Assembly: GCA_965215275.1 (NCBI GenBank)
Contig: OZ244044.1
Location: 1,632,001 to 1,696,000, forward strand
Source of the DNA: Thermodesulfobacteriota bacterium
Lineage (GTDB): Bacteria; Desulfobacterota_D; UBA1144; Nemesobacterales; JAJCZQ01
Length of the DNA stretch: 64,000 bases
Direction: 5' to 3'
Of the stretch, positions 13,833 through 50,350 are shown piece by piece. The translations under genes were made by a program, and so were the position numbers. The first letter of the stretch is position 1. Each line of letters opens with the position of its first letter. The notes beneath the pieces are model-generated. The model searched no databases, was not told where the DNA came from, and worked only from the letters and a program-made list of their open reading frames with translations.

Positions 13833-14006
13833 CCTTGATGATATTTATAATCCGCAAAGGAACGATTATAATATTTTCACGAAGGACAGAGATAGGGATA
13901 GACAAAGAGCGTATGTACGAACTGCTTACGGTTAACACTGGACGGGTTTTACAGAAGTGCATATATAGTTCTGAAGACGTTAAAACTGAACGCCGCTTAT
14001 GGTTAA
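13833..14006 (+). pseudogene. Internally deleted remnant of the M20 peptidase gene (copy of 43436-43517 joined to 44539-44645)
   Basis: Direct sequence match to both ends of the gene at 43497-44645, joined at a GTATG microhomology (13911-13915). Confidence 0.88.
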
Positions 14007-14376
14007 GAGAAAAAGGGCATTAATACTGATAGATCACGGCAGTAAAGTAAGAGAGGCCAACGACCTGCTTGTAAAGGTCAGGGAAAAGCTTCTGAGCAGT
14101 CCGGCCTGTAAATTCGATATTGTGGAACACTGTCACATGGAGCTTGCCTCTCCCACTTTGGAAGACGCTTTTTCAGTTTGCGTCAGTTCAGGTGCGGAGG
14201 AGATAGTGGTACATCCGTATTTTCTGGCACCGGGCAGGCATTCAAAGACCGATATACCAGAAATGGTAAAAGAAGCTTTGATCAAGTTCCCGGACGTTGA
14301 GTGTAAAATAACGGAGCCGCTGGGGTTACATGATAAAATTATAGAAGTTATCATTCAGCGTGCCGACCTTTGCTGA
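13999..14376 (+). CDS. Sirohydrochlorin chelatase, CbiX/SirB-type single domain
   Basis: LIDHGS, HMELASP, HPYFLAPGRH, DIP, EPLG. Confidence 0.9.
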   Translation: MVKRKRALILIDHGSKVREANDLLVKVREKLLSSPACKFDIVEHCHMELASPTLEDAFSVCVSSGAEEIVVHPYFLAPGRHSKTDIPEMVKEALIKFPDVECKITEPLGLHDKIIEVIIQRADLC

Positions 14377-17073: not shown

Positions 17074-17103
17074 TTGACATTCATTCAGGATACAAAGTAG
17101 AAT
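17074..17103 (+). promoter_or_regulatory. Sigma70-type promoter of surface gene 1
   Basis: TTGACA (17074-17079), 18-nt spacer, TAGAAT (17098-17103); conserved in the duplicate at 18314. Confidence 0.7.
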
Positions 17104-17112
17104 AAAATAGTT

Positions 17113-18050
17113 ATGAACATGTTATTCAGAGCAATACCCCCCCCCCTTATAATTCAGTAATTCCCCTTTTCTTTCTTCTTTGCCTTGTATCCGTTGAGGC
17201 ATATGGCCAGATTAATAATTGTGACTCCAGTGCAGATATTGAAGCTACGCTGCAACTGGACGGAATGGAAAGTCGCTATACTTTAGCAGATGCCAATGAC
17301 CTGGATTATTTTCAGATAGAGGTAACAGGTTCTGTTATGGTAGATATAGAGGTAGTCATGGTAGTTGCGGCTTTACCGACAGACTACAGGTTACAGTTGT
17401 GTGACAGCAATGATGATCTGATAGCCAGTGATACTGATGATTTAATTCTGAACGTTATGGATCAGCTTGAACCGGGAACGTACTATATCGTTATGGGAAA
17501 CAGCAGAGGTGTCGCATTATACGATATTGCAGTAATGGGTACCATAATTAATCCACCTGATCCTGACCCTAACATACCAACCTTTGGCAGTGAAACGATA
17601 GATGATCAGGATTACATAGCAGGGAATCCAATAACACCAGTAACTCTGCCTGCTGCAACGGGAGGGGATGGAGCATTAACATACAGCCTGACTCCTGCAT
17701 TACCAACCGGACTGGATTTTAACGCAGGTACTCGAGAGATAAGCGGGACACCCACTACTGTAACGAGCAGGACTACTTATACATATACTGTAACAGACGA
17801 TGACGGAGATACGGATGATTTGAACTTCAGGATCAGTGTAGAGGTTCCTCCTGCTCCGCCACCGCCAGGACCGACACCAACACCACGAAGACCGACAACA
17901 TCAGGTACTGATACAGGCGGAGGTGGAGGATGTGCGGTCTCCGATCAGAGCAACGTTGTTCCTGATCTGCTCGGAGCAGTGGCATGTCTGATGCTTATAC
18001 CCGTGTCAGTAGTGATCAGAAGGAAGATAATGTCTCAGATAAATATGTAG
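17113..18050 (+). CDS. Surface protein 1: signal peptide, PPC-like domain, one Ig-like (He_PIG-type) repeat, Pro linker, Gly-Cys-TM sorting tail; frameshifted at C10
   Basis: ATG 17113 MNMLFRAIPPP then stop at 17158; the body frame reads YNSVIPLFFLLCLVSVEAYGQ... into ORF 17265-18050. Confidence 0.85.
17137..17146 (+). repeat. Poly-C tract (C10), putative phase-variation switch
   Basis: C11 or C8 would restore the frame. Confidence 0.85.
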
Positions 18051-18313: not shown

Positions 18314-18343
18314 TTGACATTCGGTCAGGGTACAAAGTAGAAT
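18314..18343 (+). promoter_or_regulatory. Sigma70-type promoter of surface gene 2
   Basis: TTGACA-18 nt-TAGAAT. Confidence 0.7.
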
Positions 18344-18352
18344 AGAAAAGTT

Positions 18353-20106
18353 ATGAACATATCTTTTAGAGTAATACCCCCCCCTTTCTATCTAAGTTAG
18401 TAATTCCCTTTTTCTTTCTTCTGTGCCTTGTATCCATTGAGGCATATGGACAGATCAATAACTGTGACACCAGTACCACCGATCTCAATGATCCCTTATA
18501 CGGCTGTCAGTGGCATCTGAAAAATACAGGACAGCTTGGGGCTGTAACTACCTCTGGAGAAGATATAAACATAGAAGGGGTATGGGATGATAATGTATTC
18601 GGTGCTGGAATTAATGTGGCGGTGGTAGATTATGGTATGCAAACCGGTCACGAGGACCTTGCTGATAATGTAAATACCAGCCTGAATCATGATTATTCAG
18701 GAAGCAGTAACATATACGACCCTTCAGAAACTCGTGGTACACGTGTATCGGGAGTTATAGCAGCAGTGGGAGATAACAGCCTTGGGGTAAGAGGCGTGGC
18801 ACCACAGGCAGGCATCTATAGTTATAATTTAGCTGGCAACTTCAGCGGTGCCAACGCAAAGGATGCCATGGTCCGTAACAGAGATACAACGGCTGTATCC
18901 GTCAACAACTGGGGACCGAATGACCTGCCTCTTCTCAGAGAGGCTTCATCAGATTGGGAAGAAGGAGTGGGAACGGGTATAAGTGAAGGGTTTGGTGGTA
19001 AAGGGGTATTTTATGTGTGGGCGGCCGGGGACGGAGATAAAAGGGCAGATCAGGCTAATTTTGATGAGTATTCCAGCTACTACGCTGTAACTGCCGTATG
19101 TTCGGTAGATGGAGAAGGGAACAAGAGTTCTTTTTCAGAAGAAGGAGTAAATCTTTGGGTATGTGCTCCAGGAGAAAATATTACAACTACTGATAATAAC
19201 AATGAATATATTTTTGATGCAAGTGGAACAGCATATTCAGCAGCACAGGTTGCAGGTGTGGCGGCACTGATGAGGGAGGTAAACGGTGACCTTAGCTGGA
19301 GAGACCTTAAACTGATACTTGCAACTTCAGCTCGTAAGAACGACGCTTCTGACACAAGCTGGGAGACGGGAGCACAGAAGTACGGTTCTGGTTCAGAAAA
19401 TTATAATTACAATCCTAAGTATGGTTTTGGTGTGGTAGATGCAGAAGCAGCAGCAGGACTTGCTGAAAGCTGGACTAATGTTCCAAGGATGAGAACTCAG
19501 ACCGTTTCCTCCGGGACTATTGATATGGCAATCATCGACCACGATGACATAACCGGAGTAGACGGAGAAACTATTTCCAGACTGACAATACCGGATACTT
19601 CTCTTTCTTTTACAGAGTTTGTAGAGGTTGAGTTTAATTTCTCTCACACGTTCTTGCCAGATCTGGAAATACAGATAACCTCCCCTGACGGTACTGTGTC
19701 ACAGCTTACTGAGGAATATACAGCAGGAGCGATATTACTCGTACTTAACACTTCACTCACTTCAAGTGACTTTGATTACACGAACAAAACTCATCGTTTT
19801 GGTTCAGCCAGGCACCTTGGAGAAGACCTTGCCGGAGAATGGATTTTGAAAATAACTGATCATCATAATGGAGGTTCAGGGATTTTACACTCGTGGAGCA
19901 TTAAAGTTTATGGTCACGGGAGGGAAGATACAGTTGCACCACCGCCACAAGGTCCAGTGTCAGATAGTGATACAGGTGGAGGAGGATGTGTGGTCTCTGA
20001 TCAGAACGAAGTTGTTTCGAATCTGCTTGGAGTAATGGCATGTCTGATGCTTATACCTGTATCAGCAGTGATCAGAAGAAAGATAAGGTCTCAGATAAAT
20101 ATGTAG
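18353..20106 (+). CDS. Surface protein 2: signal peptide, inactive kexin-like S8 domain, P domain, Gly-Cys-TM sorting tail; frameshifted at C8
   Basis: ATG 18353 MNISFRVIPPPFYLS*; the body frame reads FLSKLVIPFFFLLCLVSIEAYGQ...DPLYGCQWHLKNTGQ into ORF 18616-20106; LSWRD and YGFGVVDA kexin-like motifs. Confidence 0.87.
18377..18384 (+). repeat. Poly-C tract (C8), putative phase-variation switch
   Basis: C9 would restore the frame. Confidence 0.85.
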
Positions 20107-42378: not shown

Positions 42379-43245
42379 CTAATTCGCCCGTGCACTTACT
42401 GCCAGCCAGTTCCTTATAACGAACAGTTTTCCATCCTTGTCTTTCTCGCCATGCAGTAATATGGAGGGAGCTACTGCGTTTTTCATGGCCGTGGAAGCAT
42501 CATCGGTCGGATAGCCGTGAAGGGCACCGGCGGCGTATTGCTGGAACTCACTTATATGTTCCCAGGCATCCTGGGTGAGACGTGCAGCAAACTCCTGGGC
42601 GTTGACCAGTTTGAACCCTGCTTTGCTCACCAGATCTTCATAGTATGACCTTGGATGGAATTTTGCTGCTTCTGCTTTCTTATTGTCCTTCCCCCGCTTA
42701 ATACCTTTTTCCCTTAACAACAGGACGGCGTTCTTTACCTGTGTTCTGTAAAAAGGGATAGTGTTTGCGGGTCTTGCTTCTTCGTAGAAGGCGGTATTGA
42801 AAAAAAGCCAGCCGTTTGGCGTCAGTGTTTCTTTTATCTTTATCAGACTTTCTATTTGTGCTTTCTCGTTCAGATAGTGTATACCGTTCCCCCAGACTGC
42901 GACGTCAACGCTCCCTTTCGGCAGGTTAATATCTTCAATTGGCGAATTGATGAACTTAAGCTTTTCTATGTGATTTTCGAGTTTGGACTGGGCTAATTTC
43001 AGAGCGTCTGAAGATTGGTCAAGGCACATTACGACCGACTCTCTCCACTTTGAAGGCAGGTGGTTAAAGAAAAGTTGCACCATTGTTCCCGCACCGGTCG
43101 CCACGTCCAGTATCTTGTCTATTTTCCCCATACCTTTATCTACCATAAGCTGTACCCAGCTAGCTATTATATCTCCGTTGACCTTTTTATAATCCTCGGT
43201 ATTAGCAAAAGGTTCATAATTATATGTTTCCTGCTTGTCTGACAT
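42379..43245 (-). CDS. Class I SAM-dependent methyltransferase
   Basis: ILDVATGAG motif I, LTPNGWLFF. Confidence 0.88.
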   Translation of the reverse strand: MSDKQETYNYEPFANTEDYKKVNGDIIASWVQLMVDKGMGKIDKILDVATGAGTMVQLFFNHLPSKWRESVVMCLDQSSDALKLAQSKLENHIEKLKFINSPIEDINLPKGSVDVAVWGNGIHYLNEKAQIESLIKIKETLTPNGWLFFNTAFYEEARPANTIPFYRTQVKNAVLLLREKGIKRGKDNKKAEAAKFHPRSYYEDLVSKAGFKLVNAQEFAARLTQDAWEHISEFQQYAAGALHGYPTDDASTAMKNAVAPSILLHGEKDKDGKLFVIRNWLAVSARAN

Positions 43246-43496
43246 CTTGACCGTCTCCCTGAAACTTTATTTTAAAATCGAAATTAACTTTAGTAAAGTA
43301 TAGAACATTTAAGCAAACATTCAATTATCTAAACTATACTCTCTTTTTTTGATGTCTTTTAAGTGATTACTTTAATGAACTTTGGTTCAGAAAAACCAAT
43401 TCAGGTTCATATCTGGAAATTTCCGAGTATCATTACCTTGATGATATTTATGATCCGCGAAGGAACAACTATACTAATTTCAGGAAGGACTGGGAT

Positions 43497-44645
43497 ATGA
43501 TAAACAAAGAGCGTATGACCGAACATTTAATGGAACTTATAAGGATAGATAGTCCGTCCAGGCGTGAAAAGAGGGTTGCATTAAAACTTCAAAGGGAAAT
43601 GGAGGAGCTTGGAGGGAAGTGCATATACGATGAAGCGGGAGATGTAGTAGGGGGAGAAGTAGGCAATCTGTTGGTGAAGATAAAAGGTAATAAGAATGGA
43701 GTTCCAGCTTTTTTTCTCTCTTCTCACATGGACACGGTTGGTCCCGGAGAGGGTATAAGACCGGAAATAGAAGATGGAAGGATGAGAAGCGACGGCACGA
43801 CGATCTTAGGTGCTGATGATAAAAGCGGGGTTTCGATAATAGTGGAAATAATAAGAACGCTCAAGGAGCAAGATTTACCACATGGCGATATTGAGATTGC
43901 ATTTACGATATGTGAAGAGGTAGGACTTTTAGGAGCAAAGTACTTTGACGTATCAAGTCTGAATTCCCGTTATGGAATAGTTCTGGATAGCAGTACCCCG
44001 GACAGGCTTGTTCTTAAATGTCCGTCTTCTGATATTTTAACGATAAGAGTACACGGACTTGAAGCTCACGCGGGTCTTTGTCCAGAGAAAGGGATCAGTG
44101 CGATACAGTTAGCCTGTCGTGCAATATCCAATATTACAACTGGCAGGATAGATCATGAAACTACTTCAAATATTGGTATTATAGGAGGAGGGGTTGCTGC
44201 CAACATAGTTCCAAACTTCGCTGAGGTTGTCCTGGAAGTCAGGAGCCATGATAATGCAAAACTTGATGAACAGGTCAAGCATATATGTGACAGTTTTCAT
44301 CAGGAAGTAAAAAGCTGCTCGGTTATTGTAGATGGTCAGGAAAAGAGGCCAGTTGTAGATATTGACGTCGACCACGTTTATCGTAAGATGGACGTTCCTG
44401 CGACAGCCAGGGTCACTCAATTAGTGGACAAGGCCGTTTCAGACCTTGGGTATACAATAAAGCACCATACTACTGGAGGAGGTTGTGACGCGAACTATTT
44501 TAATAATAAAGGCGTGGAATGTGTAAACCTTGGAACGGGTATGTACGAACTGCATACGGTTAACGAGTATTTAGTACTGGATGAGTTTTACAGAAGTGCA
44601 GATATAGTTCTGGAGACGTTAAAACTGAACGCCGCTGATGGTTAA
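43497..44645 (+). CDS. M20 family peptidase T-like metallopeptidase
   Basis: SHMDTV, LGADDKSG, EEVG, GGCDAN, HTVNE. Confidence 0.93.
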   Translation: MINKERMTEHLMELIRIDSPSRREKRVALKLQREMEELGGKCIYDEAGDVVGGEVGNLLVKIKGNKNGVPAFFLSSHMDTVGPGEGIRPEIEDGRMRSDGTTILGADDKSGVSIIVEIIRTLKEQDLPHGDIEIAFTICEEVGLLGAKYFDVSSLNSRYGIVLDSSTPDRLVLKCPSSDILTIRVHGLEAHAGLCPEKGISAIQLACRAISNITTGRIDHETTSNIGIIGGGVAANIVPNFAEVVLEVRSHDNAKLDEQVKHICDSFHQEVKSCSVIVDGQEKRPVVDIDVDHVYRKMDVPATARVTQLVDKAVSDLGYTIKHHTTGGGCDANYFNNKGVECVNLGTGMYELHTVNEYLVLDEFYRSADIVLETLKLNAADG

Positions 44646-44893
44646 GAGAAAAAGGGGCGTTAATACTGATAGATCATGGCAGTAAAGTAAAAGAGGCTAA
44701 CGACCTGCTTGTAAAGGTCAGGGAAAAGCTGCAGAGCAGTCCGGACTGTAAATTCGATATTGTGGAACACTGCCACATGGAACTTGCCTCTCCCAGTTTG
44801 GAAGACGCGTTTTCCGTTTGCGTCAGTTCAGGTGCGGAGGAGATAGTGGTACATCCGTATTTTCTGGCACCGGGCAGGCATTCAAAGACTGAT
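44638..44893 (+). pseudogene. Truncated, frameshifted copy of the CbiX/SirB chelatase gene
   Basis: Near-identical to 13999-14253; extra G (AAAAGGGG vs AAAAGGG) after codon 6; homology stops just before the promoter at 44898. Confidence 0.92.
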
Positions 44894-44897
44894 GTAC

Positions 44898-44926
44898 TTG
44901 ACATTACAGCAAAGCAGAAGTAAAAT
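44898..44926 (+). promoter_or_regulatory. Sigma70-type promoter of surface gene 3
   Basis: TTGACA (44898-44903), 17 nt, TAAAAT (44921-44926). Confidence 0.75.
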
Positions 44927-44935
44927 ATAAATGTT

Positions 44936-47900
44936 ATGAAAAATTTCATGAAAAGTTCAAACATAAAAACACGTAGTTCCATTACCCCCCCCCCCGTGTA
45001 TACCTGACCTTTCAGTCTGGTATAAGTATTTTGTAAGAACAATGTTTAAGATAATACCCCCCCCCATCTAAGTTAATCCTTTCTTTATTCTTATTTTTTC
45101 TGTTTATACTGGTAATAGCTGCAAAAGGGCAGAGCAGCTCAGAAGAAACATTATCTGAATGCAGAGGTATGAGTGCAGACACGGAAGATCCGTTATACGG
45201 ATGTCAGTGGCATCTGAAGAACACTGGGCAGTTAAGTTTTTCCGGAAAGGAAATAACGGCAGGAGAAGATATAAACATAGAGGGAGTGTGGAACGAAGAC
45301 GTATACGGTACCGGAATTAACATAGCAATAGTAAGTGACGGTATCGACCTTTCACATGAGGACCTTTCTGCTAACGTCCGTTCCGGACTGCACTATGATC
45401 ATTCATACGGTTCATCCTTTAGTGGAACACAAGCGGCAGGTGTTATTGCAGCAACTGGATATAACGGACTGGGAGTAAGAGGAACTGCACCTGGTGCGAG
45501 TATATACAGTTACAGGTTATCCGGTGATATCAGTGAAGCGGACGCGGTGGTCCGTAATAAGGAAATAACTGCAGTATCGGTTAACGGCCTGGGATCTGAG
45601 GACGGATATTATTTTCAGGAGGCTTCATCTTCCTGGGAAGAAGGAGTGGAACTTGGTATAAAGAAAGGGTTTTATGGTAAAGGGGTGTTTTACGTCTGGG
45701 GAGCAGGGGATGGGCATGAGAATAACGATCAGGCTAATTTTTCTGAATATTCTAATTACTACGGCGTAACTGCCGTGTGTTCAACAGACGGCTTTGGAAA
45801 GAAGAGTATATTTTCAGAAGAGGGAGTAAATCTATGGGTATGTGCACCTGGTTCTGATATTGTAACTACTGATAACAACAACGATTACATTGTAACTTCC
45901 GGAACATTTCTTTCAGCTTCACAGGTTGGAGGAGTGGCAGCACTGCTGAGAGAGATAAACGGACAGCTGAGCTGGAGGGATATAAAGCTTATACTTGCGG
46001 GTTCAGCACGGCAGAACGATTTTTTTGATATGAGCTGGGAGACTGGAGCTGTTAAATACGGTTCTGATACGGAAAGATATAATTATAATCCTAAGTATGG
46101 TTTTGGCGTGGTAGACGCAGAAGCAGCTGCAGAGCTTGCAAAAAGCTGGAAAGGCGTTGGTGAAATGAGGACCGTTACAGCTTCTTCAGATAATGAGATA
46201 ACAATTCCTGATGGAGAAGGAGATGGAGAAGGAGAAGCAGACGGGATCCTTGTTTCCAGACTTATGATACCGGACCTTGAAGAAATATTTACGGAATTCG
46301 TTGAAGTAGAACTTGTTTTTTCGTGTGACTGCTTACAGGACCTTGATATAAAAATAACCTCTCCTTCCGGGACAATATCGGAACTTGTAAGGGAGTCTGT
46401 AAGTGGATCTTCGGATGAAGAAAAAAACTGCGTCAGTTACCTGAGAAGAACACATCGTTTCGGGTCGGCTAAACACCTCGGAGAAGACCCTTCCGGAGAA
46501 TGGATTCTCAATATAGCCGATACTGCTTCCGGAGATGAAGAAAATGGAGAAAATACTTTTACCTTACACTCTTGGAGCATTAAGGTATACGGGAATTTTT
46601 ATCAGGGACCTGGCAGTGAGACAGGTCCCAAAGATCATAATGTAAGTTTTGGCAATGCAACGATAGCTGAACAATCGTATAAAGTAGGTGAAGCAATAAA
46701 ACCATTAGTGCTGCCTCTCCCAATAACAGGGGGTGGTTACAGTCTTTCATTGTCTCCTAAATTACCTGATGGATTGAGTCGTAGCTTCCGAACTATAAGT
46801 GGAACACCAACTACTGCAACACCTGAGACCCTTTATACATGGACCGCCAGAGATAGTAACAGTGGAGATACGGATGAGTTAACGTTCAATATTACGGTAG
46901 AATCTGACATACCAACCTTCGGCAGTGAGACGGTAGAGGATCAGACGTGGTTTAATGGCAGCGCAGTAACGTTAACTCTGCCTCAGGCTACCGGAGGTAA
47001 CGGAACTTTAAATTACAGTTTAACTCCTGCTGAACCAAGTGGACTTACCTTTACCGAAAGCACCAGAATGTTAAGTGGAACACCCAGCATTTCTGCACAT
47101 CTACTTCCTTTAACTGTTACTTATACTTACAAGGTAACTGATGATGACGGTGATTCTGACAGTATTACTTTCTCTATTACTATAACAACGGACCTGGCCT
47201 TTGACAGTGGGGATGGGTCTTTTACTGATTTTTATACACTAATAGCAAATGCATTATCATCAATACCCACTCTAACGAGTAATTCGTTGCCTGCTGCAAC
47301 GGGAGGTACTCCTCCATATATATACAGTGTTACTCCTGTATTACCAGACGGATTAGCAGCGTATAACTCTAATGACAGAGTTATACGCGGGACACCAACT
47401 ACTGCAACGCCCAGGACTACCTATACGTATACCGTTACTGACAATAACGGACATACGGCTGAATTGATGTTCGATATTGCTGTAAGAGCACTCTTCATAA
47501 GTGCTGCTGTGATAAATGATAAGGTGTATTTAACCGGTACAGAAGTAACAGAAGTGCTGCCTGCAGCAGATGGACATAATGGAACGTTAACGTACAGTTT
47601 AACTCCCAATTTACCTTCCGGACTGGATTTTACCCCTGCCACCCGAGAGATAAGTGGAACTCCAGATACTGCAACTTCCAGAAGCACTTATACTTATACG
47701 GTAACTGACACAGATGGATTTAAGAACTCAAAGACGTTCAGTATTACTGTAAGAGCAGAACCGAACACAATGCCGACCTTCGGCAGTGAAACTATAGATA
47801 ATAAAGTGTATATAAACGGAGAAGCAGTAAATGAAACACTGCCAGAAGCAACGGGAGGGAATGCTCCTTTAACTTACAGTTTAACTAGTCTTGGGTTAAT

Positions 47901-48501
47901 TGATCTTAATTTACCAACTGAATTGGGATTTAATCCTGATACCAGAGTGTTAAGTGGAACACCCAACCTTGATGCACGAATACTTCCTGTAACTCGTACA
48001 TATACATATACAGTAACGGACGCAGATAATGATACAGATGAACTGGAGTTCAGTATTACAGTGGAAGAAGACAGCGAACCGGACTTCAGCGTGACGACGA
48101 TAGAAGATCAGGTGTACATGGGGAGATCAATAAGTTTGCCGGTAGCAACGGGAGGGAATGCACCGTTAGTATACAGTATAACGCCTCCCTTACCTCCTGG
48201 GTTGAGATTGGACAGAGACACAGGGATAATAAGCGGGACGCCCGCGAGTGCGTCGTCTGAGAGGACCTACACGTACACGGTAACGGACAGGAATGGAGAC
48301 ATTAAAGAGTTGACCTTCAGGTTCAGTGCAGCGGCTCCGCCACCGACAGGTAGTGATTCAGGCGGAGGTGGTGGAGGATGTGCTGTCTCAGATCAGAGCA
48401 GCACTGCTTCTGATATTCTCGGAGTAATGGCATGTCTGATACTTATACCTGTATCAGTAGCTATCAGAAGGAAGAGAAGGTCTCAGGTAAAAAAGCAGTA
48501 A
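44936..48501 (+). CDS. Surface protein 3: signal peptide, inactive kexin-like S8 plus P domain, six Ig-like (He_PIG-type) repeats, Gly-Cys-TM sorting tail; frameshifted at C11 and C9
   Basis: ORF 45169-48501 extends upstream in frame to SKLILSLFLFFLFILVIAAKGQ at 45067; ATGs at 44936 and 45042 are out of frame across the tracts. Confidence 0.85.
44985..44995 (+). repeat. Poly-C tract (C11)
   Basis: C10 joins ATG 44936 to the open frame that includes ATG 45042. Confidence 0.75.
45057..45065 (+). repeat. Poly-C tract (C9), putative phase-variation switch
   Basis: C8 or C11 joins MFKIIPP to the signal peptide h-region. Confidence 0.85.
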
Positions 48502-48637
48502 TGCAGTTCTTTCAAAGGCATTTATGAGAGAGCACTACAGCTTGGTTTTCTTTTATATCAGTTATCAGTTCTTTGAGGAGAACGGGTGTAGTATTACCGT
48601 GTATTGAACTATAGTATATAATTTCTTTAAATTGTGT

Positions 48638-48960
48638 TTAGCCTTGTTTATTAACTGTTATTTTCCCTGTGGCTACTAACTCGTTGAGCAATGCAGTCAA
48701 TTCTGCTTTTTGCTGAGCAAGTTTTTTGTCCATATAAGTTGTCTGAGCAGCAAGTTTTTTGTCCATATAAGTCGTCTGAGCAGCAAATTTATCAGTAAAA
48801 TATTTTTTAACTTCTTCGATCTTATCTGAATATTCTTTTAACATTTTCTTCTCTTTTATACTTAGCTGATTTTCCAAATATATTTTAATTGTAAAAAACA
48901 CAGCAGCAATTATCGAAGTTGCTGCAATTACTATTGGAGTTAAATTTTTAAAAGAAACAT
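48638..48960 (-). pseudogene. 5'-truncated tandem copy of the 49070-49504 gene
   Basis: 48542-48960 is near-identical to 48980-49392; no in-frame ATG, first TM missing. Confidence 0.75.
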
Positions 48961-49069
48961 AGATAAGAGAATTGGGGTCTGGTTTTCTTTTAATCAGTTA
49001 TCAGTTCGTTGAAAAAATGGGTGTATTACCGTGTATTGAGCTATAGTATATAATTCCTTTAAATTGTGT

Positions 49070-49504
49070 TTAGCCTTGTTTATTAACTGTTATTTTCCCT
49101 GTGGCTACTAACTCATTGAGCAATGCAGTCAATTCTGCTTTTTGCTGAGCAAATTTTTTGTCCATATCAGTCATTTGAGCAGCAAGTTTTGTGTTCATAT
49201 CAGTCGTCTGAGCAGCAAATTTGTCAGTAAAATCTTTTTTAACTTCCTCAACCTTATCTGAATATTCTTTTAACATTTTCTTCTCCTTTATACTTAGCTG
49301 ATTTCCCAAATATATTTTAATCGTAAAAAACACAGCAGCAATTATTGAAGTTGCTGCAATTACTATTGGAGTTAAATTTTTAAAAGAAACATGGTTATAA
49401 GCCCCTTTATGGAAAAATATACTACCATATATTAAAAAAATTATAAATAATATAATAAATGCAATTTCAAAAATGAGTTTGTAATTAGATAATCTATCGT
49501 TCAT
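49070..49504 (-). CDS. AT-rich membrane protein, two TM helices plus coiled coil with 11-aa repeats
   Basis: K(F/L)AAQ(T/M)TDM(N/D)(T/K) repeats after two hydrophobic helices. Confidence 0.75.
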   Translation of the reverse strand: MNDRLSNYKLIFEIAFIILFIIFLIYGSIFFHKGAYNHVSFKNLTPIVIAATSIIAAVFFTIKIYLGNQLSIKEKKMLKEYSDKVEEVKKDFTDKFAAQTTDMNTKLAAQMTDMDKKFAQQKAELTALLNELVATGKITVNKQG

Positions 49505-49708
49505 CGTCTGCCTTTCTTAAATACAAAATCCATAATATATAGTAATAGAAAATGGATAAAAAAACAACAAAAAGAATACAGCCTATTAACGCTTCTATGA
49601 ATAAAGTAACAGACAAAACATCAGAGGTGTTTTTGAAAATGGTATCAATCCCGCATAAACGAACTGAAAACCTGCCAAATTAGTAATAAATCCTAATGGA
49701 AATCTTTT

Positions 49709-50350
49709 TTAAACACCTCTTTTTTCACCCCATATTATCTTATGTAGCTGCGGTAGCACCCTGATCGAATCCAAATTATCTGCAAGAATTTTTTCCGCCA
49801 GCCAGGTAGGGCTTTTGCCGTAGACGGGCTGGAATATTATTGAGGCTCTTATATCATAACGGCTTAATACATTTATAGCGTATGAATAGTCATTTTCATC
49901 GTTTATGACGAATTTAATTTGATCTTTTGGTTTCAGATCTTCAAATAAACTGAAGTCCATACGGTTGTCCATGCCGGAACTGGGACATTTACAGTCCATA
50001 CTGATCAGGCAGGAACTTTTTTCAAATATTTCTGGAGGCTTTTTATGACCGCTGGTCTCAAGTAAGATAAAGTATCCAGTGTCGAGCAGTTTCTCGGTAA
50101 GTGGTACCAGTTCCTTTTTTTGTATCAGAGGTTCTCCTCCGGTGATACATACCCTGCCACAGTTGTATTTGGCGATCTCTGCTATAATTTTATCGTTGGA
50201 TATCTCCGTAAAATCATTTCCTTCAACGGCGTACATGGTATCACACCAACTGCATCTCAGGTCGCAGGCAAAAAGCCTTAAAAACACAGTTGGCTGACCG
50301 ATTTGAACACCTTCACCTTGTATGGAATAGAAAATTTCACTAACCTTCAT
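49709..50350 (-). CDS. queE: 7-carboxy-7-deazaguanine synthase (radical SAM)
   Basis: EIFYSIQGEG, CDLRCSWCDT, TGGEP, QLHK. Confidence 0.95.
   Translation of the reverse strand: MKVSEIFYSIQGEGVQIGQPTVFLRLFACDLRCSWCDTMYAVEGNDFTEISNDKIIAEIAKYNCGRVCITGGEPLIQKKELVPLTEKLLDTGYFILLETSGHKKPPEIFEKSSCLISMDCKCPSSGMDNRMDFSLFEDLKPKDQIKFVINDENDYSYAINVLSRYDIRASIIFQPVYGKSPTWLAEKILADNLDSIRVLPQLHKIIWGEKRGV

Follow-up and report, generated by a model that had tools for sequence, protein, structure and literature searches.

The window analysed here is a 64,000-nucleotide stretch of a 1.99-Mb host genome that is assembled as a single contig. Its longest open frame (1148 codons) encodes a predicted surface protein. 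The original prediction called this the largest surface gene, which is true of the window and too broad for the genome, where paralogues reach 1553-2109 codons. As that prediction described, two poly-C tracts stand in series ahead of the gene, a C11 tract (44985-44995) and a C9 tract (45057-45065), with a gap of 61 nt between them. The features of the locus are as follows:

44631..44897, + strand: truncated, frameshifted duplicate of the 5' part of a cbiX-like chelatase gene, ending exactly where the outer -35 element begins
44898..44926, + strand: outer sigma70-like promoter P1, with -35 at 44898-44903, 17 nt and -10 at 44921-44926; presumed active
44936..44984, + strand: ATG1 and leader codons; the ATG lies 9 nt past the -10 box, without a Shine-Dalgarno
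44985..44995, + strand: tract 1, C11, out of frame; open to read-through at C10 or C13
44996..45056, + strand: spacer, a putative decayed second promoter-start unit, with -35-like 45004-45009 and -10-like 45027-45032 hexamers (8/12 consensus)
45042..45044, + strand: ATG2, the inner start, in the read-through frame and 5 nt behind TAA 45034
45057..45065, + strand: tract 2, C9, out of frame and stopped at 45069; open to read-through at C8 or C11
45073..45117, + strand: predicted Sec signal peptide, hydrophobic core (15 residues, mean Kyte-Doolittle hydropathy 3.39), reached only via tract 2
45307..46584, + strand: kexin/furin-like S8 domain and P domain (Pfam PF00082, PF01483)
46640..48330, + strand: Ig-like repeat stalk, approximate limits (Pfam PF05345 He_PIG, six stretches)
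48358..48501, + strand: Gly-rich motif and Cys, hydrophobic helix and basic tail, assigned by sequence shape

The outer promoter (TTGACA-17-TAAAAT) matches the consensus at 11 of 12 positions and is the best among the 26 sites listed for 43000-49800. The first three bases of its -10 box form a stop codon in frame with ATG 44936, which we infer to be a leaderless or near-leaderless start. At this leader the length of a repeat in the 5' coding region sets the reading frame, which is one of the properties that mark a contingency locus. In the assembled C11/C9 state, the leader from ATG 44936 comprises 23 aa and ends at TGA 45005. This stop closes the spacer for tract-1 lengths of C8 and C11, and TAA 45034 closes it for C9 and C12. 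Frame computation showed that, from ATG 44936, only C10 or C13 combined with C8 or C11 gives a product of 1187-1189 aa, which confirms the original prediction that one tract-1 length class passes and that tract 2 must be C8 or C11 for the ~1187-aa protein. From ATG 45042, C8 or C11 at tract 2 gives 1152-1153 aa whatever the length of tract 1. The assembled C11/C9 copy is OFF under every model. Judged from its sequence, the 44936 leader works like a poly-C contingency locus, and we regard it as a candidate for one.

No Shine-Dalgarno match was found before ATG 45042, where the pairing energy is -0.4 kcal/mol compared with a median of -4.1 kcal/mol for 1170 long ORFs; this agrees with the earlier remark that the inner start has no obvious Shine-Dalgarno. 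Such a match is a usual, not an essential, mark of termination-reinitiation. An attenuator or hairpin over ATG2 was rejected as a candidate because no terminator-like site was found on the + strand ahead of 48903 and the leader RNA fold has a z of -1.2.

The closest solved relatives of the S8 domain are furin and kexin (E about 1e-28). At this locus the catalytic Asp, His and Ser and the oxyanion Asn are replaced by S, S, F and D, and by these residues the domain is a pseudo-protease, which may serve in surface binding or as a decoy. The tail at 48358-48501 is likely a C-terminal membrane anchor or sorting signal; it is similar in shape to Synerg-CTERM (TIGR04564), for which it scored 15.3 bits, under the 22.5 cut-off.

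An intact cbiX copy lies at 13999-14376, and the duplicate at 44631-44897 corresponds to 13991-14257. In each of four runs, an 87-nt contig crosses the junction between the duplicate and the promoter with no differences. The relatives G001 and G002 have pepT, cbiX and the following gene side by side, which indicates that the surface gene came to this site with a rearrangement. The cbiX duplicate lies behind pepT, and a 3' fragment of pepT precedes the intact cbiX, a rearrangement footprint about 30 kb across relative to those two genomes. The window also holds two tandem single-tract family members, at 17074-18050 (C10 at 17137) and 18316-20106 (C8 at 18377), neither of which is in frame in the assembly. 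The S8 domain of the second also lacks the triad, and the upstream regions of the two are duplicates that include the end of an L,D-transpeptidase-like gene. Directly downstream of the surface gene, at 48638-49504 on the - strand, are two similar short ORFs that have heptad-like repeats and a matching pair of hairpins (48903 and 49335).

Poly-C tracts and the paralogous family in the host genome

Runs of C or G in the host genome number 78 at length 6, none at length 7 and 139 at length 8 or more, with a mode of 9; extrapolation from 5- and 6-runs predicts about one run of 8 or more. The runs group into 111 tract loci, which include 28 doubles with 59-63 nt between tracts, and all 28 doubles front one paralogous surface-protein family. 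We counted 57 ORFs with the Gly-rich/Cys/hydrophobic/basic tail, a search that misses some broken or atypical copies, and 47 of them carry a 5' tract (two tracts in 24, one in 23, none in the remaining 10). Family genes follow a common plan of TTGACA, 17 or 18 nt, a -10 box, about 9 nt, ATG, a short leader and poly-C, without a Shine-Dalgarno, whereas the rest of the genome uses Shine-Dalgarno sequences. TTGACA is present in 49 of the 50 promoters scored, which were found with a pattern that required TTGAC followed by A, C or T. The + strand of the contig carries most family members and their tracts (26/28 doubles).

The promoter-ATG-poly-C plan, with tracts of up to C26, also precedes DNA-methylase-like genes at 384592, 496990, 828763, 899122 and 1401695 of the host genome, which shows that different gene families have the unit in common. 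A family of repeat proteins that appear TPR-like by eye carries internal C9-C11 tracts at equivalent positions (19539, 20737, 31554, 1069001, 1899949, 1901573, 1914739 and 1964984).

Among the 28 doubles, tract 1 ranges from 9 to 13 and tract 2 from 8 to 12, and all three frames are represented. Tract 1 is in frame in eight, tract 2 in five and both in one (1028883 of the host genome); the four copies with tract 2 alone in frame lie at 1007865, 1102206, 1486513 and 1496590. The second tract is one base longer than the in-frame length in 20. Single-tract copies are in frame in 5 of the 21 scored (22 rows were listed, from which one methylase row was dropped). The share of doubles with both tracts in frame (1/28) differs from that of in-frame singles (5/21) at a Fisher P of 0.045, a difference that follows from arithmetic alone.

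The D-H-S triad is missing in 49 of the 50 tract-bearing S8 copies of the genome. In contrast, D-H-N-S is kept in six of seven tract-less copies and in all ten Dehalococcoidia relatives aligned, out of 24 relative loci. On the tree, from which one partial copy was left out, 48 of the 49 triad-less copies form one supported clade, which indicates that the triad was lost in one event rather than 49. Triad loss and the gain of 5' poly-C map to nearly the same branch, and the nearest outside relatives are intact Dehalococcoidia proteases. The sequences suggest that the S8 family was transferred between phyla.

We also compared tract lengths between sequencing runs. No length variants were found at three unique tracts (C9, C11 and C10; 315250-319950), where one contig each of runs X1, X3 and X4 equals the assembly base for base, although these runs belong to one study, possibly to one specimen or to the source of the assembly itself, and contigs drop rare alleles. 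Run X5, from another study, agrees in length at the single tract that it covered. The comparison draws on 4 of 17 listed runs, none of which is listed as an RNA run. Tract lengths differ among paralogues only.

Homopolymer assembly errors that break an intact gene would be one explanation of the OFF state. Long homopolymers are error-prone, and the tracts of the 44936 locus share flanks with paralogues, such that contigs break there and cannot be phased to the locus. However, C9, C11 and C10 recur at the unique tracts in contigs from three runs, pooled contigs at the 44936 leader show the length classes seen among the paralogues of the assembly, and errors of this kind would not create 28 doubles, which together make this explanation highly improbable.

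The identical lengths in every run compared are also what would be seen if the tracts rarely change in DNA and most of the family is silent, a reservoir with low-level expression through slippage of RNA polymerase or +1 ribosomal shifting on the C runs, or with activation when paralogues recombine. The 20 of 28 second tracts that are one base too long form the class that a +1 shift would rescue, and proline CCC-C sites are reportedly shift-prone. Furthermore, supported branches on a tree of 66 S8 domains force at least seven gains or losses of the two-tract state, which indicates that leaders have been repeatedly gained, lost or swapped. Against this, the lengths of both tracts vary over all three frames, and the length spectrum, with no runs of 7 and a mode of 9, resembles a mutational equilibrium; we therefore consider a silent reservoir unlikely. 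The host genome does contain what we take, by sequence pattern, to be MutS- and MutL-like motifs, and slippage rates may be lower because of them.

The case for switching is indirect and would rest on the spread of lengths among paralogues together with a spectrum like that of Campylobacter jejuni, in which the modal tract length is 9 and rates of 4e-4 to 4e-3 per division apply to the switching of G8-G11 tracts (PMC3401435). Among the criteria of phase variation is that switching be reversible and frequent (PMC11868660).

Origin and conservation of the spacer

The layout of the spacer repeats the outer plan: hexamers that resemble -35 and -10 boxes lie 17 nt apart, and the second is followed after 9 nt by ATG, a few codons and poly-C. 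Six spacers were tested for their best match outside the spacers of double loci. For the three least decayed, these matches are outer promoter-ATG units (30-34/45 identical), and one of these spacer types best matches the outer unit of its own locus (34/45). The other three, of the common type, gave weaker best matches (27-30/45), and the outer and inner units of the 44936 locus are identical at 26/45 positions. We conclude that the double leader is likely a tandem duplication of a promoter-start-poly-C unit. Neither this character of the spacer nor the set of 28 doubles figures in the original prediction. In certain single-tract paralogues (e.g., 421717 and 652456), a long outer leader joins the signal peptide directly via one tract, and these copies look like collapses between two C runs.

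The duplicated units differ at codon -15, the start of the -10 box, which is TAA or TAG in 28/28 outer units and in 0/28 inner units (TAT in 20, TGT in 5, TAC in 2 and CAC in 1). The missing inner stop looks like the result of selection for read-through from ATG 44936. In all 28 double loci, ATG2 is kept, its frame crosses the spacer without a stop and each other frame contains at least one. Among 70 distinct spacer substitutions, none creates a stop in the read-through frame (3.8 expected, P about 0.02) and none changes ATG2 (3.6 expected, P about 0.03), P values that are optimistic in that paralogues recombine and are not independent. A spanning-tree simulation with 110 substitutions gave P of 0.003 for the open frame and ATG2 and 0.007 for the near stop, but it overcounts recurrent or recombined changes, and we therefore relied on the de-duplicated set of 70. 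A single-hit test of the read-through frame (P 0.008) is inapplicable because 2 of the 12 stop-making changes do occur, in contexts that make no stop. No coding constraint on the spacer peptide was detected (synonymous change 16%, compared with 22% expected). The conserved open frame speaks for translation that starts at the outer ATG and runs through both tracts, and the invariance of ATG2 suggests that the inner start is used.

The wrong frames of the spacer are closed at characteristic positions. The C9-type frame has its first stop at -8, -5 or -2 from ATG2 in 27 of the 28 doubles; the remaining one has a stop at +5 in the other frame. This stop differs by spacer type (TAA at -8, TAA at -5, TGA at -5 or TAA at -2). 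In the third frame, the stop falls at -37 or -43 in 25/28. A stop within a few bases of a downstream start is a mark of termination-reinitiation, and in the C9/C12 state the 44936 leader has one, with a gap of 5 nt. Protection of the C9-type frame from earlier stops was not significant (P 0.59 and 0.76). A six-base block at -33 to -28 is invariant among the doubles, as ATG2 is.

These data bear on a strict AND gate, in which only C10 or C13 with C8 or C11 would give protein, and ATG 45042 and the nearby stop would be relics of duplication. ATG2 has no Shine-Dalgarno, the inner promoter matches only 6-8 of 12 consensus positions in 21 of 24 distinct spacers, both wrong frames are closed in 28/28, and doubles are ON less often than singles, as arithmetic alone would give. 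Against a strict gate stand the invariant ATG2 and a stop that is maintained beside it though its place and codon vary by spacer type, and we regard this version as rather doubtful.

The inner promoter might instead still fire and yield a leaderless mRNA from ATG 45042, such that tract 2 alone switches and tract 1 only adds a stronger outer transcript. The -35/17/-10/9-nt/ATG geometry is kept, a score of 8/12 lies in the top 0.6% of random positions, 3 of the 24 distinct spacers score 9-10, and the last T of the inner -10 box is invariant, although not significantly so (P 0.18). In contrast to the outer units, TTGACA is kept in 0/28 inner units, and such a model has no need of an open read-through frame. 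We consider an active inner promoter quite unlikely.

A possible leaky two-stage gate

Our preferred reading, to which we give slightly less than even credence, is that the tandem promoter-start-poly-C units form a leaky two-stage slippage gate. In such a gate, the outer promoter would be active, initiation at ATG 44936 would be leaderless, and both tracts would change length by replication slippage. A full-length product from ATG 44936 would need tract 1 and tract 2 in frame, and tract 2 would be obligatory by every route and in every model. With C10 or C13 at tract 1, the ribosome would pass the spacer (ON). With C9 or C12, the commonest state, it would stop 5 nt before ATG 45042 and might weakly re-initiate there (low output), and with C8 or C11 it would stop 34 nt short of that start (near OFF).

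In Escherichia coli reporters, re-initiation was reduced by 5-70% at a 2-nt gap and by 80-100% at a 38-nt gap (PMC10666635), which, together with the stop distances at this leader, suggests three tract-1 output levels, all behind tract 2. Removal of the Shine-Dalgarno cut re-initiation in four of five E. coli pairs (PMC6728339). The leak is disfavoured by the lack of a Shine-Dalgarno at ATG2, the lack of significant protection of the C9-type frame, the equally invariant block at -33 to -28 and recombination among the paralogues.

The original prediction had offered an AND gate and, as an alternative, a leader ORF that controls initiation at ATG 45042. The first is borne out for translation from ATG 44936 by one open and two closed spacer frames in 28/28, an inner in-frame stop in 0/28 and no stop among the 70 substitutions, but the alternative has comparable support and a leak via ATG 45042 is possible. 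The second gains from an invariant ATG2 with a stop within 8 nt before it in 27/28 and is weakened by the missing Shine-Dalgarno. Taken together, both are probably partly true, with a two-tract gate for full output and a possible leak that depends on tract 2 only.

The likely purpose of such a gate would be that each of about 50 paralogous surface proteins is rarely expressed, such that a cell displays few. Independent switches on 50 paralogues would leave a dozen displayed per cell, and serial tracts cut the ON share per gene (1/28, compared with 5/21 for singles) without a regulator or recombinase. We also put forward, as a possibility that we hold more loosely, that a portable promoter/leaderless-start/poly-C unit was stacked into a two-input, three-level gate by duplication and loss of the inner -10 stop, and that one-unit and two-unit leaders are exchanged among some 50 dead protease-Ig surface genes, with unit number tuning the probability of ON. 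If shown, tandem duplication of a ~70-110-nt unit would be a simple evolutionary route to altered switching odds and graded output. The 61-nt spacing places both tracts on one read, so selection on their joint state is directly measurable.

Distribution and comparison with known systems

With this query, no member of the S8 family was detected in four genomes of the same genus or family (80-99% complete), and other members of the order gave distant S8 matches only. The proposed gate would thus also point to heavy surface variation, by way of a dead-protease family, in a lineage in which the four closest genomes yielded no match to that family. Among GTDB relatives, 24 loci were identified, 23 titled as Chloroflexota-type (Dehalococcoidia, Tepidiformaceae) and one as Acidimicrobiia; one of the 24 has a single G8 and the rest have no run of 8. 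JGI metagenomes yielded four protein-relative loci (39-43%), no leader tract in the two of these that were checked, and no matches to the spacer motif.

Double tracts at 50-70 nt spacing occur in 3 of 41 genomes, which besides the host are G007 (at C-rich contig ends) and G013 (one site). At 20-50 nt spacing there were none in five genomes, and at 70-100 nt spacing they occur in two of five, with the G011 case outside any long ORF. The single promoter-ATG-poly-C plan was found in 4 of 40 relatives (G005, G011, G025 and G029), on other surface or methylase genes. In other families of the same order, loci L109 (G005:C1:962010-965122), L097, L102, L094, L095 and L096 carry a TTGACA-ATG-poly-C leader (C9 to C37) ahead of unrelated surface proteins and a methylase. 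The surface gene L109 of G005 has the order ATG, C21, inner ATG, signal peptide and C12, with tracts 97 nt apart that flank the signal peptide. Its inner ATG-ATG is overlapped by one wrong-frame stop and one wrong frame stays open, which indicates that it is not a strict gate.

Several elements of the proposed gate are already known, namely a gene that has two repeats, a repeat with several starts around it and leader peptides tuned by a repeat. For stacked promoter-start-tract units that act as a serial gate, we found no account by exact-word matching in open-access literature text. The protein shares the order of S8 and P domains with kexin and furin (S8B), but its triad and oxyanion residue are replaced.

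The opa genes of Neisseria gonorrhoeae carry one pentamer repeat per gene, in the signal-peptide region, and are not known to have a serial second gate; their proteins are unrelated to those of the host family. Like that family, they are a multi-copy surface family with a 5' repeat per copy, and each copy is switched separately (11 phase-variable genes; PMC11868660), as the host copies would be. In C. jejuni, as in the host, dozens of C/G runs with a mode of 9 set reading frames, including that of the surface gene capA (PMC3401435). The loci described in that text have one G/C tract each, whereas the host has two stacked 59-63 nt apart in the leaders of 28 paralogues.

Other systems share parts of the leader arrangement. 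At Haemophilus influenzae licA/lic1A, several starts lie around a repeat and several frames can give product, but every start described there is upstream of one tract (PMC2212159), whereas in the host the second start is placed between two tracts, where re-initiation would be the way to reach it. In the pil1 leader of Streptococcus gallolyticus, a repeat alters how long the leader peptide is, and this peptide in turn controls a downstream surface structure; the account given is that it acts via a terminator hairpin (PMC3894217), whereas none was found in the host leader, which can fuse in frame to its gene. The Type IIG gene JHP1272 / HP1353-1354 of Helicobacter pylori likewise has two homopolymer repeats, each of which can cause a frameshift, and is described as using the first to set activity and the second to change the specificity of an already active 1071-aa protein (PMC3936762). 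In contrast, both host tracts precede the signal-peptide core, and both would gate expression.
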